A stretch of DNA of 64,000 bases, taken from Giardia intestinalis. Lineage: Eukaryota. Below are positions 2,723 through 60,832 of this stretch, piece after piece. The position numbers and the translations under genes were made by a program. Numbering within the stretch: the first letter of the stretch is position 1; each line of letters starts with the position of its first letter. Location of the stretch: NCBI GenBank assembly GCA_000002435.2, contig CM018793.1. The stretch is one strand, 5' to 3'. A model generated the notes under the pieces. The model did no database searches. It had not been told where the DNA came from and was given only the letters and a program-made list of their open reading frames with translations.

Positions 2723-3001
2723 GATTTGTTTGGCTGGCGATTCGTACATAATCTGACTGACCGCACAGTGAATTCTCTTCCCGTTGTCAATTACTAAACC
2801 TCTACATCAGCGCCAAGTGGACGTCTGTTTCGTGGGAAAACCAGTGGGAAATCAGATAGTTATGCTAGTAAGTGTGTATACATGCTGAAAGCCGTAATCA
2901 CCCAAACCAAACTTTACTTAGAACTTGTCTTTTACCAGCCACGCTCTGCAATCTTGTATTGAGACGCAATCTCCTAGCAGGTCGACACTTATTACCTCTT
3001 A

Positions 3002-7171: not shown

Positions 7172-7736
7172 GGCATGCGTGCAGGGCGGCGGTGGACCCG
7201 CGTAAGCATTTGTTGAAGCACACCGGATGACTCAGTGGAAGGGGATCTCGCTGGGATAATCCGTTTTAGCAGGCCGACAAAGCAACTATTAGCTTGATTT
7301 ACTCCTCTAAGACAGATAGGCCCTTGCATTGCCTGTCCCCATCAGCGATATTAGCCTTGTTCTGTGCACTGCGTAGGATGCATACAGCTCTGTGCCGTAT
7401 ACTAGTAAAGTAGGGTGCGTCTCTCTATTGGCATAGTATGTCAATCTCTTGCATTATTAGATGGTCCATATAGCTCTATCCACTACTTACAACTAGCAGA
7501 ATAGACAGCTTGCTACTCTGCGCAAGCATCTGGGGACGTATGCAGGCACGCCATGTGGCACCACGTCCTTTGTGGAGCGCTGGAGGACTACACAGGTGAG
7601 GGTCTACCATCAAGGTGCGGACACGTTGCTTCCTGACATGGAAGGTCAATGAGGCTATCCAGATGGTCCAGCAATGGTAGAAGGCTAGCAGATGTGATCG
7701 TATTGGCCATCAGCACTGTCACTAACACCAACACGC

Positions 7737-9362: not shown

Positions 9363-9376
9363 ATGTAGACTTAGGT

Positions 9377-9383
9377 AGTGAAT
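9377..9383 (+). terminator. Putative Giardia polyadenylation signal AGTGAAT (AGTRAAY class) for the VSP
   Basis: The motif sits 15 nt downstream of the TAG at 9360-9362, the canonical spacing for Giardia mRNAs. Confidence 0.4.
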
Positions 9384-9737
9384 GGCTATGCTGATGGATT
9401 CTGCACTTGGTGGCCGTACTGGCTCTGAGTAGGCCCCTTGGCGCGTAACCATAGAAGTGTTTGTGGCCAGTGGTAGAGCTTGCACTATGTGGGCCATCCA
9501 CGCATGGATCTCGCTACCAGAATCTCAGAAAGTTCCCTGTAAATGAATCGTACATCTGTGGAGCAGTCCATCAACCGTTCTCGTGCAGAGAATTGGTAAG
9601 GGCTGACAAAGGCGTAACTCTGCTTACACAGCTGCATAGTAGCAGATAGTATAGAGTACTGGCACAAATATTACGGCGTTAGTAAGCGATGTAAGCGACC
9701 CGATAGTGAAATAATCATTATTATAAATAATTCCTCG

Positions 9738-11543
9738 ATGGGCAAGCACCGCACAGCACGAAAATTCACCGGTGCCCAAAAGCTGGACAAAAATAGCGGA
9801 CTCGGGCATGCACTAGAGAATGCAAGACAACGAGATAAGCGGGAACAGCAGGCACACATGCAATCTGCAAATCCCGCTGCTGAAACGTTCAAGCAAATTC
9901 ATGGGCCCACTATTCGCAGTGTTGTCGAAGAATGCGATCTGGAAGCTATCATAGCCCGAGCTGTTGCCGAAGGCCGAGAGTTCACTATGAAGCAGGAAGC
10001 TACACTCTTGCACGAACAGAACTTCCAGGCTGAACTGCAAGTTTCCCCCACAACCTCTCAGCTTTCGTATATCGCCACACGAAAAAATCTGTTGCGCATA
10101 CCACGTCGCCCGGCCTGGTGCGTCGGTATGTCTAAAGAGGAGCTGCAGTCTCGCGAGCAAGAAGCCTTTTACATTTGGCGTTCAGAGCTTGCGAAACTTG
10201 AGCAGGAGCGAGTTGTTACGGTCACCCCTTTTGAGAAAAATCTTGATATTTGGCGACAGCTTTGGCGTGTTGTGGAGCGGTCCGATATTCTATTTCAGGT
10301 TGTTGATTGTAGGAACCCTTTGTTGTTCCGCTCGTCAGACCTTGTGCAGTACATGAAGGAGATTGGGTTGCGGCAGAAAACATATAAGAGGAGTGTTTTG
10401 CTTTTAAATAAGGCAGACCTTGTTCCTCTAGAAGCAAGAAAGATATGGACGCAGTATTTTGCAGCAAATCGTATTGAGCACGTATACTTTTCCGCTCTTC
10501 GTGAGGAAGCCCTCATCAAGCTTATAGCATACCAGATAAATAAGCATGAACGAGACCTCAAAGAGCAGGAGGCTCTTATTAGAGCGGGAGTTTGTAGCTA
10601 TAAGGACGCAGTGCAGCGGCTTGAAAACGACCTCGAAGAAGACGTGCCATCCGAGAATTCTGTAGCAGATATCTCTGAGAAAGAAGAGGCTGATCTTCCC
10701 GACCACGACGCAGATCAGCCACGAAAGAAAAAAGGGAAGCGAGTAAAGCCCGTCTCTGAGGACGTATTAGAGAGGATCAAACTGGAGTATGACCTCATCA
10801 TTAGTCGCGACGATACCGATGAGCCTCTTCCCTTTAAATATCTTGATACTGGTGCCGGGATATCATCTCCCGCTGATCTCAACTTACTAAAGTCCTCTAG
10901 AATACTCACGCGTGACGAGCTTATTGTGGTAATAAATTTACTCTCAGAGGAGGTTCGAAGGGAGGGGGTTAGGCTAAACTGTGCAAAAAGAGACTCTGAT
11001 ACCATCACAATCGGAATGGCTGGATACCCCAACGTGGGAAAGTCCAGCCTGATTAATGTCATTGCAATTGAGACAGGCGTAAGGACCGCTGTAGCGGCAA
11101 CGCCCGGGAAAACTAAGCATTTCCAAACTATCGTCTTGAGCCCGACCATCACGCTTTGCGATTGCCCTGGATTGATTTTCCCATCATTCACGCACTGTCG
11201 TAGCGATCTGCTCTGCAATGGCATCCTATCAATAGACAACGAAAGGGATTACATGGCACCGATCAGATTGGTCGCAGCGAGAATACCCAAGCGCGTCTTT
11301 GAAAAGGTGTATAATGTACAAATCAAAGATGTGGATAAGTTTAGCGTCGCCCAGCTACCGGTCGGCGTCAATCCTGCAGAGGTGTACGCCACAGCCGAGC
11401 AGATATGTGATGCCCTGGCCTTGCGCCATGGGTACATGCAGTCTTACGGCGGGACTGACCGTGCCCGTATAGCAAGAATCATACTAAAAGACATGCTAAA
11501 AGGGAAGTTAGTCTGGATTTCTCTTCCCAGTGCAGCTCCGTGA
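9738..11543 (+). CDS. LSG1: Large-subunit GTPase 1 (LSG1), circularly permuted GTPase for 60S export/maturation
   Basis: ATG at 9738. IPRRPAWCVGMSKEELQSREQEAFYIWR...TPFEKNLDIWRQLWRVVERSDILFQVVDCRNPLLFRSSDL matches the Lsg1 signature region. G4 (LLLNKADL) precedes G1 (GMAGYPNVGKSSLIN), which is the permuted order typical of the YlqF/Lsg1 family. Confidence 0.85.
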   Translation: MGKHRTARKFTGAQKLDKNSGLGHALENARQRDKREQQAHMQSANPAAETFKQIHGPTIRSVVEECDLEAIIARAVAEGREFTMKQEATLLHEQNFQAELQVSPTTSQLSYIATRKNLLRIPRRPAWCVGMSKEELQSREQEAFYIWRSELAKLEQERVVTVTPFEKNLDIWRQLWRVVERSDILFQVVDCRNPLLFRSSDLVQYMKEIGLRQKTYKRSVLLLNKADLVPLEARKIWTQYFAANRIEHVYFSALREEALIKLIAYQINKHERDLKEQEALIRAGVCSYKDAVQRLENDLEEDVPSENSVADISEKEEADLPDHDADQPRKKKGKRVKPVSEDVLERIKLEYDLIISRDDTDEPLPFKYLDTGAGISSPADLNLLKSSRILTRDELIVVINLLSEEVRREGVRLNCAKRDSDTITIGMAGYPNVGKSSLINVIAIETGVRTAVAATPGKTKHFQTIVLSPTITLCDCPGLIFPSFTHCRSDLLCNGILSIDNERDYMAPIRLVAARIPKRVFEKVYNVQIKDVDKFSVAQLPVGVNPAEVYATAEQICDALALRHGYMQSYGGTDRARIARIILKDMLKGKLVWISLPSAAP

Positions 11544-43772: not shown

Positions 43773-45386
43773 ATGACATTCTACAACCACCGCACCGCAG
43801 CGCAGGCCCGCGCACGGGAGCTGGAGATGGAACAGAAGGCCGCGCAGCTGACCCAGTTTGCAAACGAGCACCGGGTAGGCCTTGCCATGGAGAAGATGGA
43901 GGACGCTGCTGAGTTCCGCCGTGCGCGAGCCACACGTCGCGAGGCAGAAAGGGAGTTTGCTATGATCCGGGAGCACGAGGAAGAACAAAAGAGACGCGCA
44001 GCGCTAGAGGCTCGTATACGACGTGAAGAACAAGAAGCACAGGAGAAGCGCGCAGCGCACCAGGCACATCTCGCGTTTTGTGCAAAGAAGGACATTGTGC
44101 TCAGCAAATCAGATGAGATCAAGACTTTGCGGCGAGCAATAGAGGCAGCCATAGCAGCGAAGGCGAACGCCCTTTGGACCGAGGAGCATCGACGCAATGC
44201 CGCTGCTGCTACTAGCGCAGCTCTGGCATGCGAAAAGGCCGAGATTGCTGCTGAGCTGGAGCGGAAGCGCCAGGAGGACGAGGCAATGATGCTTCGGATG
44301 CGCGAGGAAGAGGAGGCCCGGCGATTGGAGATAGAAGAGATGCGCGCACTCCGTGCAGCCCGGATTACCCAGGAAGCAGAGCACATGAAGAAACTCGAGC
44401 AGGATCTCGTGAAGGCAGCCATTGAGGCGGCCATGGCCGAGCGTGCTGCTCAACTCCAAGCCGTGGAGGCCAAACGCACGCAGGCCGCACTTGATCAAAA
44501 AGCCTTCTTAGAACAGAGGAGGCTGGCTGTGGAAGAGGCAAAGAAACGAGAGCAAGAAGAAGAGCTCCTTATTGCAAAGTACGAACGCGAACAGGAGGAA
44601 CGTGTTGCTCGGCGTGAGAGCCTTAGGAAGCGCCAAGCAGACGAGCGTGACTCGCTACTTAAGGCTTTGGCTGAGGAGTTAGCCCAAAAAGAACGGAGAC
44701 GCGAGCGTCTTGAGGAACTTCGTATTGCCCTTGCAGCGGCATACGAGGAGCAAAAGCGGCTACAGGCAGAGGAGGAAGATGAACTTAAGAAGCAAAAGGT
44801 GCGTCAAGAACTGCAGGCTGCCTTCAAAGAGGCTCAAGAGGCCCGCGCTCTGCGTGAAGCAGAGGAGCGCGCCCAGGAAGAAGAGTATAAGAGGAGGCAG
44901 CTTGAAGACTACAGGCATTCAGAGGAAGTGGAGCGTGTTAATGATAGGCGCCGCCGCGAACTTATGGTTGCATTCGGGCAAGAAATGTCTCGCCAGATCG
45001 AAGCCAATAGGGCTGCACGTGAACAGGCAGAGGTGGAGCGTCGTGCTGAGGAGCAGCGGATTATGAAGTTAGGAGAGCTAGATGATGAAGCTCTGGCAAT
45101 CATCCGGGCAGAACGTGAAAGATTGGTGCGGGATTATGTCGCAGAAGTATTGGAGTACATGCCTGTCGGCATTCTTACAGACGATGATTTGCAATATCTT
45201 CCGCTGGAGGTGCAAGAAAACATAAAAGGCTTGCGCCTGAATAAAGAGTTCAATGATCTTGGGGTCCAGGAACATGCCTCTGAGTTGACAACTGGTCTTA
45301 CACCACCTACACGAGACAAGATTGACGCCATTGAACGCCACCAGGCAGAATTAAAGCAGCGATTTACATCCCCCTTTCCTTGGTAA
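43773..45386 (+). CDS. E/R/K-rich coiled-coil protein with TPH (trichohyalin-plectin homology)-like repeats; MNS1/CFAP53/trichoplein-like axonemal protein
   Basis: ATG at 43773. It is 537 aa of almost continuous RREAERE/EEQKRRAALEARIRREEQEAQEKR-type repeats, characteristic of the TPH domain found in ciliary proteins. Confidence 0.55.
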   Translation: MTFYNHRTAAQARARELEMEQKAAQLTQFANEHRVGLAMEKMEDAAEFRRARATRREAEREFAMIREHEEEQKRRAALEARIRREEQEAQEKRAAHQAHLAFCAKKDIVLSKSDEIKTLRRAIEAAIAAKANALWTEEHRRNAAAATSAALACEKAEIAAELERKRQEDEAMMLRMREEEEARRLEIEEMRALRAARITQEAEHMKKLEQDLVKAAIEAAMAERAAQLQAVEAKRTQAALDQKAFLEQRRLAVEEAKKREQEEELLIAKYEREQEERVARRESLRKRQADERDSLLKALAEELAQKERRRERLEELRIALAAAYEEQKRLQAEEEDELKKQKVRQELQAAFKEAQEARALREAEERAQEEEYKRRQLEDYRHSEEVERVNDRRRRELMVAFGQEMSRQIEANRAAREQAEVERRAEEQRIMKLGELDDEALAIIRAERERLVRDYVAEVLEYMPVGILTDDDLQYLPLEVQENIKGLRLNKEFNDLGVQEHASELTTGLTPPTRDKIDAIERHQAELKQRFTSPFPW

Positions 45387-46502
45387 ATGGTTGTTTTCCT
45401 CACTATTTCTTGCATCGTGTACTACTAATCTGTTTTCGAAGACTCGTGATGTCCTCACTTTCACCTCAACAACTGTGAGCCCTTTGAGCACATTACAGAT
45501 GGCCGAATTACAGTCCTTTCAGGCCAGATTCCTAACTACAAAACATCAGTATGGCCCTTGACCCCCACTTCTGCACCGTCCCCATTCGATGCAGGACGCC
45601 TCATCATCCGGTCCTTTCAAGTCTCTATGCATGATCCGTGGCCTTGTGTTCCGCACTGTGCCTTGCATCCTGGTAGTCACCTCCACTGGGTCCTTGCCAG
45701 CGGGGCCGACGGTCTCACAGCGATCGCGTATGACAGAGCAATCACCATCTAATGTGCGAGCCCTGTGATAGGCCGTGATGTTGGAAGGCGACATCGGTCA
45801 AAGAGGAGACATAGCCACACATTACGAGCCACGATGACATGACACATTGCATAGCATCGTGATATATGCGTGCATAACCGGTACACCAATAGGCATAGAA
45901 ACAGCACACCAGTGCCACCAGGTCATGATGACCACTCTACCCACCAGTTATTTTTAAGACTGTGCTACTGGAGCCTACTTACAGGCGTAGTCCAGAGACT
46001 TCACAAGTAAGTCTCATCCAAGTCATGGCCAGTGTGGAGACAAGGGTTGATCGTTGATGGTATATTAAGGGAATTTCCCTCCATTTGTATATTAGAGTCT
46101 CTTGTATTCCTCGGTCGCTTCATGCGATGTGCGTGTCCAGGGGTGCTCGTGTGTCTGTCCAGGGTTCAGACCTTTGCAAGGACACACGTTGTCCATTAGT
46201 ATGCCTCGCTTTTTAATCTGCCGTCTGGTGAACGAGCCTGGGTTGTCACTTCTTTTTCAATAGAAGTCTCCTCTGTCGCGACGGCTGCTGTCGAGGTCTG
46301 GCTTTACTGGCTGGGGTCGTCTTTCGGTGTCTGTCCAGCCGTGGTCCCGGAGGCCGGCGCTCCCTCCTGTTCGTAGTCCCCCAGGTCAGTGGGTCCAGTC
46401 GACAGTTAGAAGCAGGCCGGCAGGAGGAGTTGCCGGGTGGACGCCACAGGGTAGTGAAGGCCAGACAGAGCGCTCCCGGCGTCGCTGGGCCCCTTGAACT
46501 TA

Positions 46503-47766
46503 ATTTACTCTCCGCTTCACCGGGGCGGGGTTGTCCCCTGCCACCTGACCAGGTCCTCCATGCGAGCCACCGCCGCCCCGGACAAGCCACTCCCCCCATG
46601 CACCGGCCGAGATCCAGAATCCGAAATCAGAAGGTCAGATGTCGTCCAGCTCCGACGGGGAGGATTGTGCCTCCTCCTCCAGGGTGGTAACGAATGCAGA
46701 TGAGCGTCCGAGGCTGGTGGTGGGATCAGCCTCTCACACGCTAAGCTGACGCTCACCAGGATCATTGCCCGCTGGTCGAGATGGACCCACACGTGACCCA
46801 TGTAAATCCCTCGACAAGAAATAGGAGTTGGGGTGCTTGGCTGGCAGAGGTGGACTGATCCTGCCCGCACCGGAGAGTATTGGCCTGGGCCACCTGCCGG
46901 GTGTCTGCCACAGCAGTTGGCAGTGCCTGACACCCTCGAGTAGACAGGTGTCGTCTGCCGAGCAAGCCGACTTCGGTGAGCCAGTCCTAATCGCTCTTGG
47001 TGCCTCAGACGACGCCTCTCAGAGAGGTGGCCCTGGACCGACGCCTCGACAGACCGAAGCATCACCCCCAAGTGTGTTGTGCAGTGCAGATGGAGCCCAC
47101 ACGTCACTGAGCCAGATGCACTGCACAGGGTGGGCGTCGACGCGGTCTCGTGCTGGGTGACGGACCACCTGCAAGAGCGCACTGCGATCCATGAGCAGAG
47201 GGCCGGGCCTCTTCTCCGACACAACGCATGGGAGTACTCCATCGACATCCACGAACGCGTACCACACCCCAAGATAGAGGCGCACGGGGAGCGCACCCCC
47301 GACAGCAGGGTCGATGGTCCACGTCATGGGGAGACGAAGAGGCACCCCAAGAAACGGGGTAGACACCCGGGGTCGTGGCGTGCGATCTTCGTCATGGAAC
47401 ACCAGGGTCCCGGGCCACGTGGAGGCCAGATCGCCGCGACAGACGCAAGACCCTGAATAACGGGTGCTCACTAGATGTCAGACGATGGTTGACCCCGACG
47501 GGCCAGAGGGAGGGAAGTCCTAGGGGGCACCGCGAGGAGCGGCAGCTTTTAGGAGAGCTGGGACATAGGGGTTCTTCCGCCGGAATCGAGGGCATCCGAC
47601 CTCGGACTCTGGACTCTGCCTAGAAGCGAAAGACCTGCCTTCACTTGCCTCAACTGCCATTAAACTCCGATCTTTCCCAGTGCATCGAAGCAAAAATAAG
47701 ACTGTCCGGGCTGCCTCCACGTGCTAATAGATCCCATCAGAAGCAGACGAGTCGTGGAGATGGGCT
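46503..47766. repeat. Left arm of a 1264-bp perfect inverted repeat (partner 57425-58688)
   Basis: Every ORF called in this arm has an identical-translation twin on the opposite strand of the right arm, and their coordinates sum to 105191 (for example 47019-47471(-) equals 57720-58172(+), and 46517-47296(-) equals 57895-58674(+)). The ends were mapped by direct base comparison (left ...tggagatgggct|g versus right c|agcccatctcca...). The arms are GC-rich and have no recognisable coding homology. Confidence 0.9.
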
Positions 47767-47963
47767 GCTCTCCTCGCATCGATGCAGCTCATCGGCAGGC
47801 ACAGGATATCGGGTGCACCGTCCCCAGCCATGACGGTGTCAACGGCGATGTGCATAGCACTCTCGAGGGCAGGGGAGCGGTCACCCCTTTTCCCGGTTGC
47901 TGGCTGGCTAGCAACGTACATAAGGCGCACCCGCTTGTCAGGCAGCTGCACCACTAGTGACGC

Positions 47964-47970
47964 GTTTACT
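47964..47970 (-). terminator. Putative polyadenylation signal AGTAAAC (AGTRAAY) for VSP unit A
   Basis: On the minus strand it lies 13 nt downstream of the TAG at 47985-47983. Confidence 0.4.
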
Positions 47971-47982
47971 ATCTAAGTACAT

Positions 47983-49710
47983 CTACGCCTTGCCCCGGCA
48001 GATGAACCACCAGCAGAGGAAGCCCACAAGGCCAGCCACGACGACAACCGCCGCGACGGAGATCCCCGCGATGGCCCCCGTGGAGAGCCCGCTCCTGTTG
48101 GCGCCAGAGGACACACAGGAGGTCCCACTGCTGTCTAGACTGAAGCCACTGTTGCACTCTTCACACACACCGTCCATCACACAGCTCTTGCAACCACCCA
48201 CAGAGCACAGCACACACCCGCTGCCGTCCTTGTTGGGCTTCTTACTACTGTCACAAGAGGTACACACAGCGGGGGTCATACCAGCCCCAGTCAAAGGTGT
48301 CGGGGCTGTACACTGAGAGCAGCCATCCACTCCCACATATGCCTTAGCAGTATCACCAGTGCCTGTTGATGTGCCTAGGGGGTTACCACATGCCAATACA
48401 GACTGATCAGTAGCCTTTGCTTCTGGGACTATGAAGTACCTATTGTTGGCCGCCTCTGTGCATATCCCACTACTATCTGCTTTCTTGCACATATGACTAC
48501 CTGGTACTTGACCAACCTTATAACAGCCATTCATGTACAAGAAGTATCCTGTAGTACACTGTGTACATGTATGACTGGCACAAGTATTAGCTCCTTTACC
48601 AGTATCAGTACATATACCATCAATTGGTACCTTACTGTTATCCCCACAGTATGAGCAATAGTGCTTTGTGTTGCCATTCTCGTCAATTATTATAGCATCG
48701 CAGGCTCCAGATGTCCCCCCGCAGGCAGTCTCATCCTCACAGGTCTTGGTACATGTAACAGGACTGGTACCACTCTGCTTGTAGTTCACCTTACAGGAGT
48801 TGCAGGTCAACGAGTTAGAGAAGGTGCACGTTGCACAACCAGGCACTCCATCTGTTGGGTTATCACAAGAGACACATGTGCCAGGACCACTGCCTTTCAT
48901 GAAGAATCCAGGCTTGCATGTATCACACTTATCATTGCCAGCAGCAGAGCATGTAGCACAATTATCACCACAGGCTGCGCATGTAGCGGTACCAAAGTAC
49001 CCCTCTAAGCATCCACTACAGGTTGGATTGCTATTTCCTGTCTTGGTACAGGTCTTGCAGCCAGGAACACCTGTATTACCGCTAGCCTTGTCGCTATCAT
49101 CGCCACAGGGGATACACTTAGTATTTCCCTCACTTAAAAAGTGCGTATTGCCACTTGCACACTCTCCCTCCGCAACGCACGTCGTCGTCCCGTCTGCCGC
49201 CGTCTTCACCATCTTGCTACTGCTGCAGGTCCTACATTGCGGCTTGCCAATAGTTGCATTGTACTCACAGGTGGCACAGTCAGCTATTCCACATGCCTTA
49301 CATTGGCCTGTTGTCGGGTCTGCATAGTTACCAGCACCGCATCCACTAGCCTCTACACAAGTGTTATCACCCTTCAGGTACTTCCCCTCAACGCATGCCG
49401 AGCATTGATTTTGATTACTCTCTGAGCAGGCAGAGCAGCCCTCTCCGCACTTCTTACACGTATTAGAAACGCTATCCTTAACGTACCCAGCCTTGCACTC
49501 AGTACACGTGGCAGGTCCTGGACTACTAGCTGGCGCCGTGCACTTGAGGCAGTTGGCCACTCCTTTGTTCTCATTCGCTCCCTTGATATCATGACAGAGT
49601 ATGCACTCGCTACCCTTCTCTGATGGTGCAGCCGGGTTCTTGAACAGGCCGTTATCTGCCTTACAAGTAGTGCATACTCCATTACTGGCTGCTGTGCAGA
49701 TATCACTCCA
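47983..49710 (-). pseudogene. vsp: VSP paralogue (unit A of tandem array), intact CRGKA C-terminus but no initiator ATG or signal peptide (5'-truncated VSP or donor copy)
   Basis: The frame is open from directly after an in-frame TAG (49713-49711) as WSDICTAASNGVCTTCKADNGLF...VANCLKCTAPASSPGPATCTEC... through to ...GAIAGISVAAVVVVAGLVGFLCWWFICRGKA-stop. The first in-frame ATG lies more than 110 codons in, and the ORF track 'M' at 49560 is GTG. There is no hydrophobic leader. Confidence 0.6.
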
Positions 49711-49760
49711 CTATCACCCTCTATCACACACTATCACCCATTATCACCCTCTATCACCCA
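49701..49760. repeat. Decamer microsatellite (GGGTGATAGN on the gene strand; CTATCACCCN on +), about 6 copies, at VSP unit junction. Equivalent blocks lie at 51521-51570 and 53321-53380
   Basis: tatcactcca ctatcaccct ctatcacaca ctatcaccca ttatcaccct ctatcaccca lies between the poly(A) signal of the upstream unit and the first codons of the downstream unit. It recurs at each of the three unit junctions. Confidence 0.6.
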
Positions 49761-49786
49761 CTGTACAGCATTCACTACCTAAGTAC

Positions 49787-51532
49787 CTACGCCTTCCCCC
49801 TGCACACGAACCACCAGCAGAGGAAGCCGACGAGGCCCCCCACAACAACGACCACAGCGACGGAGATCCCCGCGATGGCCCCCGTGGAGAGCCCGCCCCT
49901 GTTGGCGCCAGAGGACACACACTTACCATTGTCTAGACTGAAGCCACTGTTGCACTCCCCACACACATCATCCACCACACAGCTCTTACAATCACCCACA
50001 GAGCATGTCACACACCCAGTGCCGTCCTTGTTGGGCTTCTTATCACTGTCACAGGAGGTGCATATAGCAGCAGTCATGCCAGCCTCAGTCAGAGCTGTTG
50101 GGGCTGTACACTGTGAACAGCCATCCACCCCCACGTATGCCTTCTGACCAGCCAGCTCGACCCCAAGGGGGTTCCCACAGGAGAGGACAGACTGCTTGTC
50201 CTTGGTGGGCGAGGGAGGGATGAAGTACCCGGCTGCCGCCTCTGTGCAGACACCCTCGCCTGCCTTTGTGCACATGTGACTACCGGGGGCATTGGTGGTA
50301 CTATAGCAACCACCCATGTATAGGAAGTACCCTTGAGCACAATAGCTGCAAATGTGATCAGTACACCCAGCATTTGTTCCTTTGCTATCAGTGCATATAC
50401 CATCAATAGGGAACTTACCACTATCCCCACAGTAGGAACAATAATGCTTTGTGTTGCCCTTATCATCTATTACTATAGCATCACAGGCGCCAGAAGTACC
50501 CCCACAAGCCGTTGTATCCTCGCAGGTCTTCACACACGTTGTTCCCTGTAACTTGTAGCCGATCTTGCAGCGGTTGCAGCTGGCCGGGCCCGGGGCGGCT
50601 GGGGCTGTGCAAGAGAGGCATCCTGCAAGCCCGCTGTAGCCACTATCATTACCATTCTCGCACGAGATGCACTTTCCTTCGCCGGTGCCGGCCAGGAAGA
50701 ACCCCTCCTTGCACGTTTTACATTTAGTCTCATCTGTTTTAGCTGAACATGTGACACAGTTGGCCCCACAAGCCTCACAAGTGTTTGATGACTGTTCAAA
50801 GAAGTATCCATCGAGGCAAGCTGTGCAAGTTGGAGGGGAGCCATCTGCACTCTTAGTGCATGTCTTACACCCTTCTTTGCCTTTATTGTTATTATCCACG
50901 TCTTTAGTATCTCCGCATAATAAGCACGCCGATTGGTCCTCCTTCATGAACAGCTCGTTATCAGCTCCTTGACACCCAGCATAAGAATTTTCCACACAGG
51001 TCGAGGTTCCGTCGAGGGTTGTCCTGGGAATCTTATTTGAATTACAAGTCAGACACTTGCCCTTTGCCGTTGCACTATCAAATGAGCATGTTGCACAGTT
51101 GGCATCGAGGACAGTACAGGCAACGCAGGTCATGCTAGTGTCATCGGGGTAGTGATCGTTGTTACACGTACCTTTGTCTACACACTGGTTCTCTTTCAGG
51201 TACTTCCCTGTCTCGCACGATGTGCACTGATTTTGATTGGCTCCACTGCATGTAGCACAGTCGCTGTGGCATGCAGCACACTCTGTATCACTCTTCTTAT
51301 ACGTTCCAGCCATGCACTCGGTGCACGTGGCCGCTCCTGTATTGCCACCAGGTGCCGTGCACTTGAGACAGTTGGCCACCCCCTTGTTCTCATTCGCTCC
51401 TGTAGCATCGGAGCACAGGATGCACTCCCCACCAGGAGTCACCCTCTCTGCCTTGTTCTGGAATATGTACTGACTATTTGTATTACACTCAGTGCACACT
51501 CCACTACTGGCTGCTGTGCATATCACACTCCA
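49787..51532 (-). pseudogene. vsp: VSP paralogue (unit B), CRGKA tail present, no initiator ATG or signal peptide
   Basis: Open from after the TAG (51535-51533): WSVICTAASSGVCTECNTNSQYIF...VANCLKCTAPGGNTGAATCTEC... to ...GLVGFLCWWFVCRGKA-stop. The ORF track 'M' at 51526 is GTG. The 3' roughly 500 bp (49787-50290) is nearly identical to unit C (51597-52100). Confidence 0.6.
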
Positions 51533-51596
51533 CTATCACCCTCTATCACCTTCTATCACCCTATCACACATTGTACAGCATTCACTACCTAAGTAC

Positions 51597-53330
51597 CTAC
51601 GCCTTCCCCCTGCACACGAACCACCAGCAGAGGAAGCCGACGAGGCCCCCCACAACAACGACCACAGCGACGGAGATCCCCGCGACGGCCCCCGTGGAGA
51701 GCCCGCTCCTGTTGGTGCCAGAGGACACACACTTACCATTGTCTAGACTGAAGCCACTGTTGCACTCCCCACACACATCATCCACCACACAGCTCTTACA
51801 ATCACCCACAGAGCATGTCACACACCCAGTGCCGTCCTTGTTGGGCTTCTTATCACTGTCACAGGAGGTGCATATAGCAGCAGTCATGCCAGCCTCAGTC
51901 AGAGCTGTTGGGGCTGTACACTGTGAACAGCCATCCACCCCCACGTATGCCTTCTGACCAGCCAGCTCGACCCCAAGGGGGTTCCCACAGGAGAGGACAG
52001 ACTGCTTGTCCTTGGTGGGCGAGGGAGGGATGAAGTACCCGGCTGCCGCCTCTGTGCAGACACCCTCGCCTGCCTTTGTGCACATGGACTTACCCGGCTG
52101 AGCTGATATACTATAGCAACCACCCATGTACATAAAGTACCCCGTAGTACAAGACTCACAGACATGGTTGTCACAAGTATTGCCTTGCTTATCAGTAGCA
52201 CATAGTCCATCTATAGGATACTTATCATTATCTCCACAATAAGAACAGTAGTGAAGCTCCTTCCCTGTACTATCTATTATCATGGCATCACAGGCGCCAG
52301 AGGTACCACCACAAGCAGTGTCATCCTCACAGGTCTTCACACATGTATAGTCATTCCCTGCATCTCCATTGGGCTGCTTCCTATAGTTTGGCTTACAGTC
52401 AGTGCACTTGAATGTGCCACTGTTAGAGCATGCACTGCACCCTTCGCGACCCTTATTGTCCACACTGTCGCATGAGACACACTCACCAGGTGCTTGGCCT
52501 CCTTTCAGGAAGTATCCCGGCTTGCAGGTTTGGCACTGGTTAGCATTAGCGCTGTTGCAGGTGGCACAGTTGGTCCCACAGGGCTTGCAGGTGGTATCAA
52601 AGTAGAATCCAGGGAGGCATGCTGAGCAGATTGGAGGCTGTGCCAGGTCGGTTTTCTTACACCCACTGCACTCAGCAATTCCCTCGTCAGGGGCGGTTCC
52701 TCCGGTAGCGCTGCATAGTATGCAACTGTTCTCATCCTGGCTTAGGAAGTGTGTTCCCACTGTGTTTAGCGCTGCACATCCCGCCTTATCCACGCACTCT
52801 GTTGATCCATCGACATACCCTTTAAGGAGAGGCTTGGCTCCCCCACAGGTGCTGCACACCGGCTTCTGTAACTGATCGTTGTATGCACATGCGGTGCACC
52901 CAGTTATCTCACTGCACGCCTTGCACTCCCCGGACTGTTTGTCTGCGTACTTACCAGCACCACATTGACCAGCCTCTACGCAAGTGTTAGTATCAGTCTT
53001 CAGGAACTTCCCGGCCTTACAAGAGGTGCACGCATTCGGACCGGCTCCACTACACGTCTCGCAGTCGGTATGACATTTGGTACATGCGCCACCATCGTTG
53101 TAGTACCCATCTTGACACTCTGTGCACGTGGCTGCCCCCTTATTATTAGTTGGTGCTGTACATGTAGCGCAGCCCTCGACTCCCATATATCCATCTGCTC
53201 CCGTGGCATCATGACAGAGTATGCACTCGCTACCCTTCTCTGATGGTGCAGCCGGGTTCTTGAACAGGCCGTTATCTGCCTTACAAGTAGTGCATACTCC
53301 ATTACTGGCTGCTGTGCAGATATCACTCCA
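51597..53330 (-). pseudogene. vsp: VSP paralogue (unit C), CRGKA tail present; an internal ATG at 53186 would give a product without signal peptide
   Basis: Open from after the TAG (53333-53331): WSDICTAASNGVCTTCKADNGLFKNPAAPSEKGSECILCHDATGADGYMGVEGCATCTAP... The junction with unit D (53210-53500) is identical to the A/B junction (49590-49880). Confidence 0.6.
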
Positions 53331-53406
53331 CTATCACCCTCTATCACACACTATCACCCATTATCACCCTCTATCACCCACTGTACAGCATTCACTACCT
53401 AAGTAC

Positions 53407-54744
53407 CTACGCCTTCCCCCTGCACACGAACCACCAGCAGAGGAAGCCGACGAGGCCCCCCACGACGACGACCACAGCGACGGAGATCCCCGCTATGGCC
53501 CCCGTGGAGAGCCCGCTCTTGTTGACGCTTCCACCAGTGCCTACTTCTGATTCTAAACATATGACTGAACTGCCAGATGATGACACACATTGCTTGCATC
53601 CAGAGATCTTCTCTGAGCACTTCTTGCATAACCCAGCAGTGGTATCGTCACCGTTTTCCTTGTAATACCCAGTGGCACAGGTCTTGCACTTATTAGGGTC
53701 ACCTGCAGTCGAGCACGTAGCACAAGTAGAATGGCACTCCCCACAGGCCCCACCTTGTGCCTGTAGTCCGTTGGCACACGTCTGACATGTTCCTCCCTGT
53801 GCACTACTACAGACCTGCTTACCAGGCTGTCTATCTGTCTGATAGCAGCCGCCGTCCTTGAGGAAGTAACCCTCATTGCATTTTGTACAGGCCCCACTTG
53901 TGATTGTTGCACAGAAGGCTACTCGTGAACTGGCCGCACAGTTGCCGTTCAAGGGGGCTTGTTGAGTGTTCTTGCACTTTGAGCAATATGCAGTTCCTCC
54001 TATCTGAGCCCCACACTCTGCGCATCCATCGTTTGTAGAACTCACGCTGCACTGGTCCATGCACGTGCCCCCATTGACAGGAGTATTAGTATCTGTATAC
54101 TGAAGCATTTTCCCAACAGGACAGGCCGTGCACTGATTGTTGGCCGGTCCAACGCACTCAGCGCACTCAGGGTTGCATGCCTTACACTTCTTGTCACTAT
54201 CTCCGTAGTATCCGCTGATGGCTGTGCAGTCAGGTACGCACTGGTTTGTAGGGGTGAGGTAGTCGCCATCATTACATTTAGTGCAGACCTCGTTGTCGGT
54301 CTTCGGGTTATCGCAGGCCTTGCAGTTGGGCGTGTTGCACGCCTTCTCGACGCACTGGCCCCCGTTCAGGACGTAGGCGGGGTCGCACGCCGTGCAGACC
54401 TCGTTGTCGGTCTTCGGGTTATCGCAGGCCTTGCAGTTGGGCGTGTTGCACGCCTTCTCGACGCACTGGCCCCCGTTCAGGACGTAGGCGGGGTCGCACG
54501 CCGTGCAGACCTCGTTGTCGGTCTTCGGGTTATCGCAGGCCTTGCAGTTGGGCGTGTTGCACGCCTTCTCGACGCACTGGCCCCCGTTCAGGACGTAGGC
54601 GGGGTCGCAGTCAGTGCAGGCCTCGTTCTCGGCCTTCGGGTTTGTGCAGTCCCTGCAGTTGGGCGTGTTGCAGTTTGCACTAGAGCCCTTCTCGTTGTGC
54701 TTTGCCAGCACGGTTGCACAAACTAGGAGAAATCCTATCAACAT
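53407..54744 (-). CDS. vsp: Complete variant-specific surface protein (unit D, 5'-most of the array) with signal peptide and three 37-aa repeats
   Basis: The ORF track start at 54765 is GTG. The ATG at 54744 gives MLIGFLLVCATVLA (signal peptide). The protein is Cys-rich with CxxC motifs and ends GAIAGISVAVVVVVGGLVGFLCWWFVCRGKA-stop. An AGTGAAT signal follows the stop. Confidence 0.85.
   Translation of the reverse strand: MLIGFLLVCATVLAKHNEKGSSANCNTPNCRDCTNPKAENEACTDCDPAYVLNGGQCVEKACNTPNCKACDNPKTDNEVCTACDPAYVLNGGQCVEKACNTPNCKACDNPKTDNEVCTACDPAYVLNGGQCVEKACNTPNCKACDNPKTDNEVCTKCNDGDYLTPTNQCVPDCTAISGYYGDSDKKCKACNPECAECVGPANNQCTACPVGKMLQYTDTNTPVNGGTCMDQCSVSSTNDGCAECGAQIGGTAYCSKCKNTQQAPLNGNCAASSRVAFCATITSGACTKCNEGYFLKDGGCYQTDRQPGKQVCSSAQGGTCQTCANGLQAQGGACGECHSTCATCSTAGDPNKCKTCATGYYKENGDDTTAGLCKKCSEKISGCKQCVSSSGSSVICLESEVGTGGSVNKSGLSTGAIAGISVAVVVVVGGLVGFLCWWFVCRGKA
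54281..54650. repeat. 111-bp tandem repeat, 3 copies plus a degenerate 4th, in-frame inside VSP unit D (37-aa unit KACNTPNCKACDNPKTDNEVCTACDPAYVLNGGQCVE)
   Basis: gtgcagacctcgttgtcggtcttcgggttatcgcaggccttgcagttgggcgtgttgcacgcc... recurs at 54281, 54392 and 54503 with 111-nt spacing. Confidence 0.85.
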
Positions 54745-55415
54745 TAGCCGGAGTACACGTGCCACTGCTCTTCCGCTAGGCTGATGTGTTGCCGCGAGCA
54801 GTGAGAGACAGTCACTCTTGCTCTCTTGATCAGTTGTACTGGAGAAGGACGAGATAGGAGCACGCCAACCGGAGGCCAGCTGACAGTGCAGTTATTCCTG
54901 ACTTCAGTAGAAACAGGACCAGTGAGGGCCAGACTCAGACCGCACCTCTCTTGTGGAATGATTGCTCGGGGTGCACTCCTGTACATTGCTGTCACTGTAT
55001 CACTGACCCCGCCTGCAGGTGCGCTCAGAGGTCTCATGGGTAAGCCGCGCCCACTTCTCGACCGTCCGGAGACGATGGCTGGTTGTGGATAACATACTAA
55101 GAGCTCCTCTCCATCGATGCATCCAGAGCTCAGTGTGGTCCCTGATCGGCATACTCTGTCTGGGGCACTCCGCGTCGGCCTCCAGGATCCGGCCTGCTCA
55201 GGGCCATATGAGCCGCTAGTATGCCCTCCTTGGCCTGCCATCGACAGCTCGCACTGGCCGCCTTGCTCGGGTAGTAGCCAAGGCCACTCCAAAGGATGGC
55301 TCCGGATTGCAGTTAAGATTAGCGATGGCTGTTGGCTCCACCCCCTGTCCCAGCTGCCGCAGAGGGAGCCCTAGGAGTTGCTAGTAACAGTGCAGTTAGC
55401 GGCTCTGCAGGGTCG

Positions 55416-57294
55416 ATGGGCGTTTGGGGAGCGTGCTCAGCAGGGGCCTTCAGCGTTATCTACTCTCTCAGGGGATGCCCCTACCTTGCTGTGAAAGAGA
55501 TCCGGCTCGATGGTCTGGGTCAGCACGGTGTGGATGCTAAAGCGTGGGCTGACCGCTCTTCTTAACCTCTCCCACCCAGACGTTCTCAAATACCACCAGG
55601 TACTTACAGACGGCAACACGATCCTTGTTGTCACAGACCGCTGCTGTGGAGACCTCCGGCAGTTCATCACCGACTACAGGGACATTCACGAACCTATTCC
55701 CAGCAAGCTGGTGCTCTCTCTTCTGGAGCAATTGGCTGGCGCCCTTGCCCACCTCCACGGGCTCAGCAGAAGTGCCCACAGCGGCCTGCCCTCTAGCGTT
55801 GTCCTCGAGCCCGACAACGTCATGTTCGCTGGGGACGGGCGGCGTGTTGTTCTTGCAGACTTCGGGTTCTGCAAGGGCATATCGAGTGGAGCTGCGAAGG
55901 CCGGCGACCCCGCGTACATGGCCCCCGAGACGCTCCTCCGCGGTATCATAACTCCCGCGTCCAACATCTGGAGCCTCGGGGCCGTCGCATACGAGCTCGC
56001 CACCCTGAGGAAGCCGGACTTCCTGGGGGACAGGGATCCTGCAGAGGTCTTCGTCGACGGATGGAGGCCGGACCTGAGCGGTGTCGCAGACGACCTCGCA
56101 AGGAGCGTCCTTGAGAGGATGCTCGTCCTCGATCTCGCCGAGAGGCCGACTGCCAGGGGGCTCGCCCGTCTACTTCGGAGGCTTGACATCTCTGCTGATG
56201 AACAGGAGGCCCAAGACACAAGGCTAAAGGAGGTGCGTGAAGCCTTTGTAGAAGCCTTGAATAGGGCCAACAACGAAACAGTAGTTCTTAGGAAGGACCC
56301 TCCTGATCGAGCTGCAAGAATGGACATCATCAGGGAGCAGTGTGCTGCTGCCGTCAAGTTATTCAGAGAAATACAGGAGATTAAGGCAGAGATGGGCGAA
56401 ACCAAAGAGTCAGAGGAGTCAGAAGAGCCAGAGAAGCACCTAATAGAGGAGGACGACTCCACCGACCTCATGAGGGCAGTCGATAGAAACGACGTGGAGG
56501 CCGTGAAGGCTCTCATACCGCTCCAGGGGGGCATGAAGATGAAGGGATGCGCACTTGTAGGTGACTGGAAGATATACGAGGGAACTGCTCTGATAAGGGC
56601 GGCGGTATATGGATACACAGAGATCGTGGAGCTGCTCGCGGAGAAAGAGAAAGGACTGAAAGATAGCAACGGATGGACCGCCCTCATGTATACTGCAAGG
56701 ACTGGCCACGCAGACTGTCTTAAGCTCCTGCTAGAGAAGGAAAGCGGCCTGAAGAGCGACAAGGGGCGGACGGCTCTCATGTCTGCAGCAAGTGCTGGCC
56801 ATTTAGAGTGTATCAAATTGCTTTTGAAGAACGAGGTTGGCATGCAGGATAACGATGGGGAAACCGCCCTTATGGCTGCAGCAGGGAACGGCCATAGAGA
56901 TTGCGTCGAGTTGCTCCTGGAACGGGAAGGCGGTATACAGGATAACAGCAAATGGACTGCTCTTATGATTGCTGCAGAACGTGGCGAAGCTGGCTGTGTT
57001 GAGCTACTCGTAGAAAAGGAGAGTTGTGCGCAATCGAGGGATGGATGGACAGCTCTCATGTGGGCTGCAAAGAATGGCCACGCAAGCTGTGTCAGATTAC
57101 TTGTGGAAAAAGAGGGCGGTATGCAAAATAACGATGGATGGCCCGCTCTCACAGTCGCTGCGCAGAGCGGCTACATAGAGTGTGCGAGGCTCCTTGTGAG
57201 GGAGAAGAATATTAGAGATAATATGGACGAAACTGCCCTTGACATGGCTAAGCTATGGAGACGCCATGAGATAGTCGCCCTCCTCTCAGAGTAA
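55416..57294 (+). pseudogene. NEK-family kinase-like gene with C-terminal ankyrin repeats; N-lobe and remainder are in different frames (apparent 1-nt frameshift near 55535-55560); catalytic HRD motif also degenerate (pseudokinase)
   Basis: Frame 0 (ATG 55416 to stop 55565) encodes MGVWGACSAGAFSVIY...LAVKEIRLDGL, the Gly-loop and VAIK-Lys region. Frame +1 (from about 55510) continues ...LNLSHPDVLKYHQV...ADFGFCK...YMAPE... through to ANK repeats (GWTALMYTARTGHADCLKLLL and others) and a stop at 57292-57294. The HRD position reads SVVLEPDN. So this is either a sequencing indel or a genuinely disrupted or pseudokinase gene. Confidence 0.5.
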
Positions 57295-57424
57295 ACGCCT
57301 TAAAGCCAATGGATTGAAGCGCCAGTGCCACATGTTACTGACCACTAGGAGACAGGAGAGGAGCTCCAGGGGCTCGGTGAGGAGCAAGGGCAGCGCATCC
57401 TCAGAGGAGCAGGCACGTGGAACG

Positions 57425-58688
57425 AGCCCATCTCCACGACTCGTCTGCTTCTGATGGGATCTATTAGCACGTGGAGGCAGCCCGGACAGTCTTATTTTTG
57501 CTTCGATGCACTGGGAAAGATCGGAGTTTAATGGCAGTTGAGGCAAGTGAAGGCAGGTCTTTCGCTTCTAGGCAGAGTCCAGAGTCCGAGGTCGGATGCC
57601 CTCGATTCCGGCGGAAGAACCCCTATGTCCCAGCTCTCCTAAAAGCTGCCGCTCCTCGCGGTGCCCCCTAGGACTTCCCTCCCTCTGGCCCGTCGGGGTC
57701 AACCATCGTCTGACATCTAGTGAGCACCCGTTATTCAGGGTCTTGCGTCTGTCGCGGCGATCTGGCCTCCACGTGGCCCGGGACCCTGGTGTTCCATGAC
57801 GAAGATCGCACGCCACGACCCCGGGTGTCTACCCCGTTTCTTGGGGTGCCTCTTCGTCTCCCCATGACGTGGACCATCGACCCTGCTGTCGGGGGTGCGC
57901 TCCCCGTGCGCCTCTATCTTGGGGTGTGGTACGCGTTCGTGGATGTCGATGGAGTACTCCCATGCGTTGTGTCGGAGAAGAGGCCCGGCCCTCTGCTCAT
58001 GGATCGCAGTGCGCTCTTGCAGGTGGTCCGTCACCCAGCACGAGACCGCGTCGACGCCCACCCTGTGCAGTGCATCTGGCTCAGTGACGTGTGGGCTCCA
58101 TCTGCACTGCACAACACACTTGGGGGTGATGCTTCGGTCTGTCGAGGCGTCGGTCCAGGGCCACCTCTCTGAGAGGCGTCGTCTGAGGCACCAAGAGCGA
58201 TTAGGACTGGCTCACCGAAGTCGGCTTGCTCGGCAGACGACACCTGTCTACTCGAGGGTGTCAGGCACTGCCAACTGCTGTGGCAGACACCCGGCAGGTG
58301 GCCCAGGCCAATACTCTCCGGTGCGGGCAGGATCAGTCCACCTCTGCCAGCCAAGCACCCCAACTCCTATTTCTTGTCGAGGGATTTACATGGGTCACGT
58401 GTGGGTCCATCTCGACCAGCGGGCAATGATCCTGGTGAGCGTCAGCTTAGCGTGTGAGAGGCTGATCCCACCACCAGCCTCGGACGCTCATCTGCATTCG
58501 TTACCACCCTGGAGGAGGAGGCACAATCCTCCCCGTCGGAGCTGGACGACATCTGACCTTCTGATTTCGGATTCTGGATCTCGGCCGGTGCATGGGGGGA
58601 GTGGCTTGTCCGGGGCGGCGGTGGCTCGCATGGAGGACCTGGTCAGGTGGCAGGGGACAACCCCGCCCCGGTGAAGCGGAGAGTAAAT
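57425..58688. repeat. Right arm of the 1264-bp perfect inverted repeat (partner 46503-47766)
   Basis: See the left arm. It is the reverse complement of 46503-47766, with identical six-frame translations throughout. Confidence 0.9.
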
Positions 58689-59093: not shown

Positions 59094-59981
59094 ATGGCTG
59101 CGGCAAAGGCTACCGAGATCAAGGCGCTCATCGACGCCAAGGACATGGACGGGCTTGCGAGGAGCGTCGCCGACTTCGACGATAGGCAGCGCGCCGAGAT
59201 CTACGCCGCATTCAGGGCGGCCAACGGGAAGACGGCCTCCGAGTACCTCGACGCCTTGTTCAAGAACGGGGACTACAAGGACCTCATGATGATCGTCCTC
59301 GACGACGAGATCGACGTCCGCTGCAAGCTGATCAAGAAGGCCTTCAAGGGCGGGAACGACGAGAGGTGCCTCACGGACACGCTCTTGACGACGACCCCCG
59401 AGATCTACGCAAGGGTCAAGGGCAGGTACCACCAGCTCTTCGGGGACGACTTCGAGTCCACGCTCAGGAAGGAGATCGGCTCCAAGACCGTCTGGGCCCG
59501 CATGGTGAACTCCTGGCTTGCCTTCTGCAGGTCTGCCCGCAACAACGTCCAGGGCGACGCAGAGGCCCTGAAGACCGCGCTGATCGGCGTCAAGCACCCG
59601 GACACGGACACGGTCATCCGCCTCCTCGGCACGACCGTCCCCAGCGAGTGGAAGCAGATCTCCGAGGCGTTCGAGAACATCGCCAAGAAGACGATCGAGC
59701 AGGCCCTCATCGAGGCCTACAAGGGCGACGACGAGCTCGCGCTCTGCTGCTGCAACGCGACGCTCCACTGCCCCGCCCGAGGCGCCGCCTACCTCCTGAG
59801 CCTGGCCTGCCAGAAGAAGGGCGACACCGACCGCTGCTGCCGCATCACCGGGATGCTCTACGACCAGGCAGAGCAGTGCAAGGTCCTCTACGCCCACTAC
59901 GGCAACTTAGCCAAGGACATCCGAGCCACGATGTCCAAGAACCTCGCCGAGGCCTGCTGCGTCCTCTGGCACGTCATGTAA
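59094..59981 (+). CDS. Alpha-giardin (Giardia annexin homologue), four annexin-like repeats
   Basis: The ATG at 59094 has a typical A-rich leader (ggcaaaattaaaaATGg). MAAAKATEIKALIDAKDMDGLARSVADFDDRQRAEIYAAFRAANGKTASEYLDALFKNGDYKDLMMIVL matches the alpha-giardin/annexin repeat-1 pattern (Giardia alpha-1: ...DIANELKQAIDAKDEVQIAFIASEYSAESREKIAKAYVASYGKELPDDIKKALKGGSEESLLMDL). GC3 is high, typical of abundantly expressed Giardia genes. The in-frame upstream ATG at 58740 would add a 118-aa non-annexin extension and is probably not used. Confidence 0.75.
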   Translation: MAAAKATEIKALIDAKDMDGLARSVADFDDRQRAEIYAAFRAANGKTASEYLDALFKNGDYKDLMMIVLDDEIDVRCKLIKKAFKGGNDERCLTDTLLTTTPEIYARVKGRYHQLFGDDFESTLRKEIGSKTVWARMVNSWLAFCRSARNNVQGDAEALKTALIGVKHPDTDTVIRLLGTTVPSEWKQISEAFENIAKKTIEQALIEAYKGDDELALCCCNATLHCPARGAAYLLSLACQKKGDTDRCCRITGMLYDQAEQCKVLYAHYGNLAKDIRATMSKNLAEACCVLWHVM

Positions 59982-60832
59982 CCCTAGTGAATCTTCCTCT
60001 CATGCTCTGGACTCTGTCTGTTTGCTGGTGTGACATGTATACCAAGATACTTCTCTCTGCCAAAACTCTAACTAAGCAATGTGCTCTACAAACCAGCAGT
60101 CGCAGTTATTATGAGGACTGACCGCCAAGCATAGCCCGGTATTTTCCATTTGCCAAAAAGTGCCGATAGATACAATATGAACCTTAGAGATCTACTAGAG
60201 TATTTACAACACTGCATGGATAACAGTTATATGGATGTATTACGTTATCCAATCCACAATCTAAAATATTTCATATAAAACGTTCTCTATAATAAAATGT
60301 TGTGGACCGTACCTAGAAATAGACTCCGTATTGTTCAGCAAAGAACTGTGAACAAATGAGGACATGGAAAAGCTGCATCAGGCACAAGGATCGAGACTTT
60401 GCAGTGGCTCATTACACAGACAATTTCCCGACAAGATACTCAAAACTGTGACAGTAGTTATCTACATGCTATACCATCCTAGACTGTTTATTACGCTAAT
60501 ACTACTGACCGTGCCATACTTGGTTGAGTTGCGCACGCTAGAGTGAGCCCCGCAATCTTAGTCTTGCATACTTCTTCTTTGTTCATCCGCTTAGTATTTA
60601 GCCCCAAACTTATTCTCGAATGCTTAGCACCACGCCACTACTTATATTTCAATAAAGTAAGGGGGTAAATAAGAGCAAGACAGGGATGCACACTCACAAG
60701 AAGGAAAAGCACCATAACATCTTTTGCAATGCAAAGCCGTCATCTTTGAGGACTTCGTGGCAATACTTATTACACGGGTTTGACTAAGTATTTTACGAGC
60801 AGCAAAAGCAATTTATAATTAGAAGATAGGTT

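Follow-up and report, generated by a model that had tools for sequence, protein, structure and literature searches.

This study addresses the question of how two identical, oppositely oriented copies of a DNA segment come to stand on either side of a VSP array in Giardia intestinalis, and whether such an arrangement serves to switch these surface antigens. The stretch under study is a 64-kb window from chromosome 5 of the PacBio reference of strain WB (PMC7000408), and coordinates are positions in this window unless another contig is named. The two copies, referred to as the left arm (46503-47766) and the right arm (57425-58688), enclose four VSP-family units and a gene for a NEK kinase with ankyrin repeats. 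The evidence presented below makes it likely that the structure arose as an inverted segmental duplication of low copy number at a VSP/NEK locus that is itself dynamic, and that gene conversion within the chromosome, probably biased towards GC, keeps the arms alike, and not selection on a product. With regard to the initial annotation of this DNA, its suggestion of gene conversion is supported, whereas its claims of novelty and of a role in antigenic variation are not.

The direct comparison of the left and right arms demonstrated that each is 1264 nucleotides (nt) long and that they are 100% complementary with 0 mismatches. The match grows by 0 bases outward and by 0 bases inward, and no residual similarity was left past any of the four arm ends, the divergence being abrupt at each. 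The spacer between the arms is 9658 nt. The window has no other long inverted repeat, nor was a third copy of the arm found within those 64 kb. The GC content of the arms is 61.4%, compared with 51.5% for the whole window. On the left side, 216 nt separate the arm from the last VSP stop codon, and on the NEK side the corresponding gap to the gene 3' end is 130 nt. The initial annotation had described the arms as exact reverse complements with mapped ends, arranged symmetrically around the genes, rich in GC and without a recognisable mobile element, and each of these statements is borne out by the present comparison, the last one by the absence of transposase and reverse transcriptase domains and of a target-site duplication. 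Its value of 130 bp for the NEK-side gap is likewise correct, whereas the 190 bp given for the other side should read 216 nt.

Evidence from an independent data set agrees with this structure. The Logan short-read contig L001 (run DRR745022, 12.8 kb) is 100% identical to the window and terminates at 46532, exactly 30 nt inside the left arm, which equals k-1 for k=31. A k=31 de Bruijn unitig is bound to break at this position if two different left contexts exist for the k-mer that opens the arm; therefore, the position of the break confirms both the repeat and its exact outer boundary. Logan contigs carrying the TPH-domain gene to the left of the repeat also matched the window at 100%, and the window itself contains 0 Ns or gaps. 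Two further features of the short-read contigs were observed. Seven independent Logan contigs from different runs all terminate at 45586, a position that L001, L008 and L009 pass through, which points to allelic variation, or to a k-mer repeated shortly after that position, in many isolates. The contigs approaching from the right side all stop at about 59950-60000, around the stop codon of the alpha-7.2 giardin gene (59981), and no record of the exact alpha-7.2 giardin protein, in either its 413- or its 295-amino-acid form, was present in the contig index. The index likewise held no exact match to the NEK (594 and 586 amino acids) or to the 259-amino-acid ORF of the arm. These right-side stops are consistent with a giardin coding sequence that is near-identical to its paralogues (alpha-7.1/7.3) and collapses in short-read assemblies. 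In practice, short-read assemblies break at this locus and read mapping to the arms is ambiguous, and the orientation of the 9.66-kb segment is not trustworthy without long reads.

The comparison with other assemblage A isolates provided information on the history of the arms. Up to position 46502, contig L008 (SRR5468952) and WB disagree at 6 of 2741 positions (99.8% identity). Past 46502, 12 differences occur in the next ~70 nt (~17%; about 83% identity), after which the two sequences are unalignable, so that the step in divergence starts exactly at the outer edge of the left arm (46503). Because the diverged homologous sequence of L008 abuts the same flank base-for-base, arm-like DNA appears to have pre-existed at the left position, and one of the two lineages would since have been overwritten up to 46503.

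The right arm shows a different relation to its surroundings. In the assemblage AII (DH) contig L018, a full-length NEK gene 88% identical to the WB NEK is followed by arm-like DNA, and identity runs at 93-96% straight across 57425 before decaying to 60-70%; no divergence step was seen against L018 at the inner edge of the right arm. Another AII contig, L013, carries a more distant NEK plus arm fragments. This order of NEK and then arm-like DNA in both contigs indicates that genes of the NEK family natively have the inner portion of the right arm as their 3' flank and that the inner junction lies in its original context. The arms are not wholly unique, as the NEK paralogues of the AII contigs are followed by diverged sequence resembling the arm (72-90% identity). 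As judged from these contigs, the arm-like sequence thus represents a low-copy family and not unique DNA.

A counterpart was also found in assemblage E. In isolate P15, contig ACVC01000331.1 (L011) carries the alpha-7.2 giardin gene with the same downstream gene order, and is 84% identical to the window from 20 nt 5' of the ATG onward. Directly upstream of this gene lies an inverted repeat with arms at approximately 1788-4417 and 7549-10154 (about 2.6 kb) and a spacer of 3.1 kb with a NEK inside. Its two arms differ by 79 mismatches and 106 gap columns in 2671 columns (~3% substitutions). With blastn, the WB block 47079-47524 (best over 47293-47405) matched both P15 arms at 66-78% identity. 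In a four-way alignment, in which only this block is alignable, the arms are identical within each genome across the block, whereas WB and P15 share 60-78% identity. The arm-to-arm difference is therefore 0% in WB and ~3% substitutions in P15, against 22-40% between WB and P15 in the only alignable block. On the right side the position is orthologous, since assemblages A and E share the collinear order of right arm and alpha-7.2 giardin. The spacer NEKs are not orthologous. P0015 was set aside, as it proved to belong to an unrelated paralogous locus. A homologue search with the TPH protein gave one distant match among low-complexity candidates, and it yielded no left flank from P15 or GS. As a separate observation on the P15 contig, L011 contains a 78%-identical direct repeat (1645-1772 and 7348-7482), with one copy immediately external to the left arm at its outer end and a second copy just within the right arm at its inner end, upstream of the spacer NEK. 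This direct repeat hints at an older, larger or shifted duplication.

Concerning the nature of the arms, they are non-coding intergenic DNA. The codon-usage log-odds of all arm open reading frames (ORFs), including one of 259 amino acids, range from -0.02 to -0.21, compared with +0.09 to +0.31 for 18 training genes, the NEK, the giardin and the VSPs. No arm ORF of WB, P15 or DH matched VSP or any other domain in Pfam, the region of the longest arm ORF contains indels of 1-2 nt relative to a near-identical isolate, and no reading frame is conserved in 47079-47524. On these grounds, the possibility of coding arms was rejected. An Rfam scan of 45300-48000 at E<=1 gave no match, and no telomere repeat was found in the arms. 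The best-conserved core (47293-47405, mirrored at 57786-57898; L011 4165-4284 and 7682-7801) comprises ~110 nt at 78% identity between assemblages A and E, outside of which the arm is barely or not alignable between the two. A structured RNA in this core was rejected, as the fold z-scores are only -1.3 to +0.7 and Rfam gave no match, and a metagenome scan with a 28-nt core pattern conserved in assemblages A and E returned 0 matches. In addition, the only AGTRAAY polyA-signal motif in the arm, AGTAAAT, is flush with the outer arm end (58682-58688, mirrored at 46503-46509) and sits 8 nt past the stop codon of the 259-amino-acid arm ORF; the frequency of the motif in the window is ~3e-4 per base-strand. 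Possibly an unannotated transcript has its 3' end at the edge of the duplication, or the coincidence may be due to chance.

Based on this evidence, the right arm would be the DNA that originally followed the NEK gene on its 3' side, in the direction of the alpha-7.2 giardin gene, and the left arm would be an inverted copy of it placed across the cassette. The arms would then be kept identical, or have recently been made so, by intrachromosomal and probably GC-biased gene conversion. Gene conversion is proposed because of the identity within each genome compared with the divergence between genomes, the high GC content and the jump in divergence at the arm edge. In assemblage A it has been reported that conversion is GC-enriched, acts in kb-scale tracts and is concentrated at VSPs (PMC12669663). 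Homogenisation of the arms by this process had been put forward in the initial annotation, and the cross-isolate comparison with P15 and L008 now backs it. Further, the VSP/pseudo-VSP array of ~6.8 kb was probably inserted into, or expanded inside, an older NEK spacer of ~3 kb. When the array is subtracted from the spacer, a step which itself presupposes such an insertion, 216 nt and 2659 nt are left, that is ~2.9 kb with the NEK. The array is suggested to be the later component because this ~2.9-kb remainder would match the standard geometry of most Giardia inverted pairs and the 3.1-kb spacer of P15.

The contents of the spacer and the neighbouring genes are listed in the table. Pfam identified the four VSP-family ORFs on the minus strand between 47983 and 54765, with a period of ~1810 nt. 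A Met together with a signal peptide typical of VSPs is present only in the unit at the head of the array; in the other three, the CRGKA tail and the polyA signal are retained but a usable start or signal peptide is missing. The layout given in the initial annotation, four VSP units on the minus strand and a divergent NEK-ankyrin gene, is correct, but three of the four units are pseudo-VSP-like without a usable start and the NEK is degraded at its 5' end. The same pattern is known from the WB reference annotation, in which pseudo-VSPs without a start and a signal peptide occur in arrays (PMC7000408). The intact VSP contains 111-nt tandem repeats at 54281-54672. A second VSP is located 38 kb upstream on the plus strand (7737-9362); it contains at least six 120-nt tandem repeats (7704-8603), and at the 3' end it shares 83% identity with the corresponding end of VSP unit 1.

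Table. Features of the repeat, its spacer and its neighbours in the 64-kb window of G. intestinalis WB
Feature	Positions	Strand	Evidence and remarks
TPH-domain gene	43773-45386	+	Pfam; fixed left-hand neighbour
Left arm	46503-47766	none	1264 nt, non-coding, 61% GC; exact reverse complement of 57425-58688
Arm segment alignable with assemblage E (P15) arms	47079-47524, mirror 57667-58112	none	blastn
VSP-family unit 1 (array tail, pseudo-VSP-like)	47983-49560	-	Pfam VSP 2.4e-35; CRGKA tail and polyA signal; without ATG or signal peptide
VSP-family unit 2 (pseudo-VSP-like)	49787-51526	-	Pfam; without ATG or signal peptide
VSP-family unit 3 (pseudo-VSP-like)	51597-53186	-	Pfam; ATG present, signal peptide absent
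Intact VSP, array head	53407-54744	-	Pfam VSP 2.4e-76; Met and signal peptide MLIGFLLVCATVLA; CRGKA tail
NEK kinase with ankyrin repeats (divergently oriented to the VSP units)	55362-57294	+	Pfam Pkinase and Ank (ORF 55510-57294)
Right arm	57425-58688	none	begins 130 nt past the NEK stop; ends 405 nt ahead of the alpha-7.2 giardin ATG
Alpha-7.2 giardin (annexin)	59094-59981	+	Pfam annexin; fixed right-hand neighbour of the repeat in assemblages A and E

Concerning the NEK gene, the annotated form has 586 amino acids with a start at 55534, and the NEK is 100% identical to P0004 of G. intestinalis ATCC 50803 (WB). A tblastn comparison with the AII homologue P0005 located a frameshift near 55530. 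The N-terminal kinase lobe (55362-55540, the glycine-loop/VAIK region, GAFSVIYSLRGCPYLAVKEIRLDGL) lies in another frame, and a deletion of 15 amino acids relative to P0005 is present. This 5'-degraded NEK is either a pseudogene or truncated pseudokinase, or the product of a residual indel error in the assembly. As for the neighbouring DNA, the giardin is 97% identical to the P15 protein annotated as 'Alpha-7.2 giardin', and the alpha-7.2 giardin of WB corresponds to GL50803_114119 (PMC5739509). The segment 45387-46502, which separates the left arm from the TPH gene, consists of unique sequence and contains no gene. From the TPH gene to the VSP array, 2.6 kb (45387-47982) are without a credible gene, which is unusual in a genome that is 81% coding and fits the published remark on the gene-poor surroundings of VSPs.

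Several points weigh against the explanation by duplication and gene conversion. The perfect identity of the arms could equally reflect a very recent duplication, and the short-read polishing of the PacBio assembly could have sharpened it by erasing a few real differences. The NEK in the P15 spacer is only 43% identical to the WB NEK, which has better P15 matches elsewhere, and arm-like sequence also accompanies NEK paralogues at other loci. The inverted repeats of WB and P15 could consequently have arisen independently from the same repeat family and not from one ancestral repeat. On the left, the P15 contig ends in a VSP, before the left outer flank is reached.

The first of these points leads to the alternative of a one-off, very recent inverted duplication, in which no homogenisation is ongoing and the arms have had too little time to diverge. 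Such an event would account for 0 differences in 1264 nt and for the abrupt ends, which are also seen in other duplicated pairs of Giardia (PMC2996952), and duplications make up 6.9% of the WB genome (PMC7000408). Nevertheless, another assemblage A isolate (L008) has diverged, homologous arm-like sequence joined base-for-base to the same left flank, and the inverted repeat of P15 occupies the equivalent position next to alpha-7.2 giardin; we regard this alternative as unlikely. It is very improbable that the repeat, or its perfect identity, is an artefact of mis-joining or of a polishing step that collapsed two similar copies. The WB reference is indeed a PacBio assembly corrected with Illumina reads (PMC7000408), and multi-mapping reads are able to wipe out small differences between copies. 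On the other hand, the Illumina-derived contig L001 is 100% identical over its whole length and its end 30 nt into the arm implies two contexts for the first arm k-mer, the analogous inverted repeat of P15 was assembled from 454 data, and the window is free of Ns and gaps.

Two other alternatives assign the arms an active role in mobility or in gene expression. According to one of them, the arms would be the terminal inverted repeats of a transposon with VSP/NEK cargo, or the halves of a precursor of hairpin double-stranded RNA for RNA interference (RNAi); the long terminal inverted copies, the AGTAAAT polyA-type motif flush with the outer end of each arm, and the existence of an RNAi-linked model of VSP control in Giardia speak for it. 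A terminal-inverted-repeat transposon is contradicted by the flanks, ...GAACTTA before the left arm and GAGTGAT... after the right arm, which show no target-site duplication, by the absence of a transposase or reverse transcriptase domain from the Pfam results for the ORFs of the locus and of the arms, and by the left flank, which is contiguous with arm-like DNA in another isolate (L008), so that no empty site is seen. A hairpin would require a single transcript of >11 kb. Moreover, the NEK stop codon overlaps the polyA signal AGTAAAC (57290-57296) and VSP unit 1 has a canonical extended VSP polyA signal directly past its stop codon; because of these signals, the NEK and VSP unit 1 transcripts should stop 115-200 nt short of the arms, and if transcription did continue outward from both genes it would copy the same strand of the arm sequence and not complementary ones. 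The formation of hairpin double-stranded RNA by read-through, as proposed in the initial annotation, finds no support in this anatomy, and the transposon and hairpin readings together are extremely improbable. According to the other alternative, the locus would be an active invertible antigen cassette, in which the arms flip the 9.66-kb segment at appreciable frequency within a clone and the orientation affects which VSP is expressed or silenced. With 1264 nt of perfect homology, the arms are more than long enough to recombine. In WB, 162 inversions were predicted from nanopore data, and significant enrichment for VSPs was reported for several dozen structural variants per isolate, whose type was not broken down (PMC7048089). 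The P15 spacer NEK also has the opposite orientation to the WB NEK relative to alpha-7.2 giardin, but this was rejected as evidence of inversion, since the two NEKs are not orthologues, as their low identity and the better P15 matches elsewhere indicate. Further, neither a promoter nor an ORF is cut by an arm; the intact VSP and the NEK share a 745-nt divergent upstream region that lies inside the spacer in either orientation, with the arms 130-216 nt beyond the gene 3' ends; and three of the four VSP units are not expressible as VSPs. Short recombination sites are absent, and no site-specific recombinase was found near the locus in a Pfam scan of the ten largest ORFs of 40.5-60 kb, in which the only domains were VSP, NEK/ankyrin, annexin, TPH and zinc-finger. 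For these reasons an invertible antigen cassette appears improbable.

A distinction should be drawn between inversion as such and inversion as a switch. Arm homology would make the 9.66-kb spacer a substrate for inversion, and its inversion by crossover between the 1264-nt identical arms is plausible. A flip would carry all cassette genes together with their own control regions, and it is expected to be neutral for expression. Because each cassette gene has its own 5' region inside the spacer, a flip would not by itself turn a VSP on or off, and the proposal in the initial annotation that the locus is an invertible VSP cassette acting as an antigen switch is therefore not supported. It is very doubtful that the arms cause recurrent flipping in clonal populations and that orientation then alters what is transcribed around the intact VSP (53407-54744), which might, for instance, become exposed to antisense transcription or read-through from the TPH or giardin side. 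If true, VSP switching, for which only epigenetic and RNAi mechanisms are currently invoked, would gain a further level of control in the DNA itself; at present, the locus leaves the picture of antigenic variation unchanged. With its non-coding arms, its step at the arm edge and its counterpart in assemblage E, the locus is a clean and well-delimited case for how Giardia keeps duplicated DNA identical. As assemblage AI is reported to lack sexual recombination, it also bears on how mitotic gene conversion shapes VSP/NEK neighbourhoods.

Among the systems known in other organisms, the bacterial invertible antigen switches (Hin/Fim/shufflon, and vsa/vpma of Mycoplasma) resemble this locus in that inverted repeats bracket surface-antigen genes. 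In the bacterial switches, however, a dedicated site-specific recombinase acts on short recombination sites, and a promoter or 5' gene segment stays fixed beyond the DNA that inverts; the present locus shows none of these features. The palindromes of the human Y chromosome and the inverted repeats of plastids are low-copy inverted repeats that undergo arm-to-arm gene conversion and mediate inversions. By analogy, the Giardia repeat may be compared with them in its arm identity within a genome, which is far above that between lineages, in its abrupt ends and GC-rich arms, and in its spacer as a possible substrate for inversion. The differences are the much smaller scale in Giardia, the absence of evidence for arm genes whose integrity conversion would protect, and the fact that inversion isomers were not observed here.

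The novelty claimed in the initial annotation does not hold, since identical inverted duplications and inversions in WB have already been published (PMC2996952, PMC7000408, PMC7641422, PMC7048089). The inversions of WB described by Pollo et al. in 2020 (PMC7048089) concern the same organism and strain, and inversions are the commonest class of structural variant there, but they were not tied to flanking inverted repeats. In the accessible part of their supplement, GL50803_114119 and nearby identifiers are not among the structural variants listed, and a 10.2-kb inversion found there was rejected as a candidate, as it overlaps GL50803_101074 and represents a different locus.

The closest known relatives are the identical inverted VSP pairs of Giardia (vsp1267-type). 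Adam et al. in 2010 described 14 identical inverted vsp pairs with abrupt ends, most of which have spacers of 2.2-3.8 kb (PMC2996952). Xu et al. in 2020 listed 19 pairs in WB, some with a NEK or a reverse transcriptase remnant between them, and with spacers of 2.5-3.3 kb for all but one (PMC7000408). In G. muris, seven pairs with NEK/ARP remnants between them are known (PMC7641422). A description of this particular repeat was not found in the literature; the similarity track in Figure 2 of PMC7000408 used a 2-kb cut-off, and the 1264-nt arms fall below it. The present locus shares with the published pairs the two ~100% identical inverted copies whose similarity ends abruptly on both sides, and the gene-poor VSP/NEK neighbourhood, in which a spacer can hold a NEK or a pseudogene. 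The spacer measures 9658 nt in total and would be of comparable length, ~2.9 kb, if the VSP array is subtracted. The difference lies in the arms, which are VSP genes in the published pairs; here no arm contains a complete VSP ORF, as neither a Pfam domain nor coding codon usage was detected in them, and the VSPs, one intact and three pseudo-VSPs, are in the spacer. This locus is thus a real new example of the inverted duplications known around Giardia VSP/NEK genes, for which a role as an antigen switch is unsupported.

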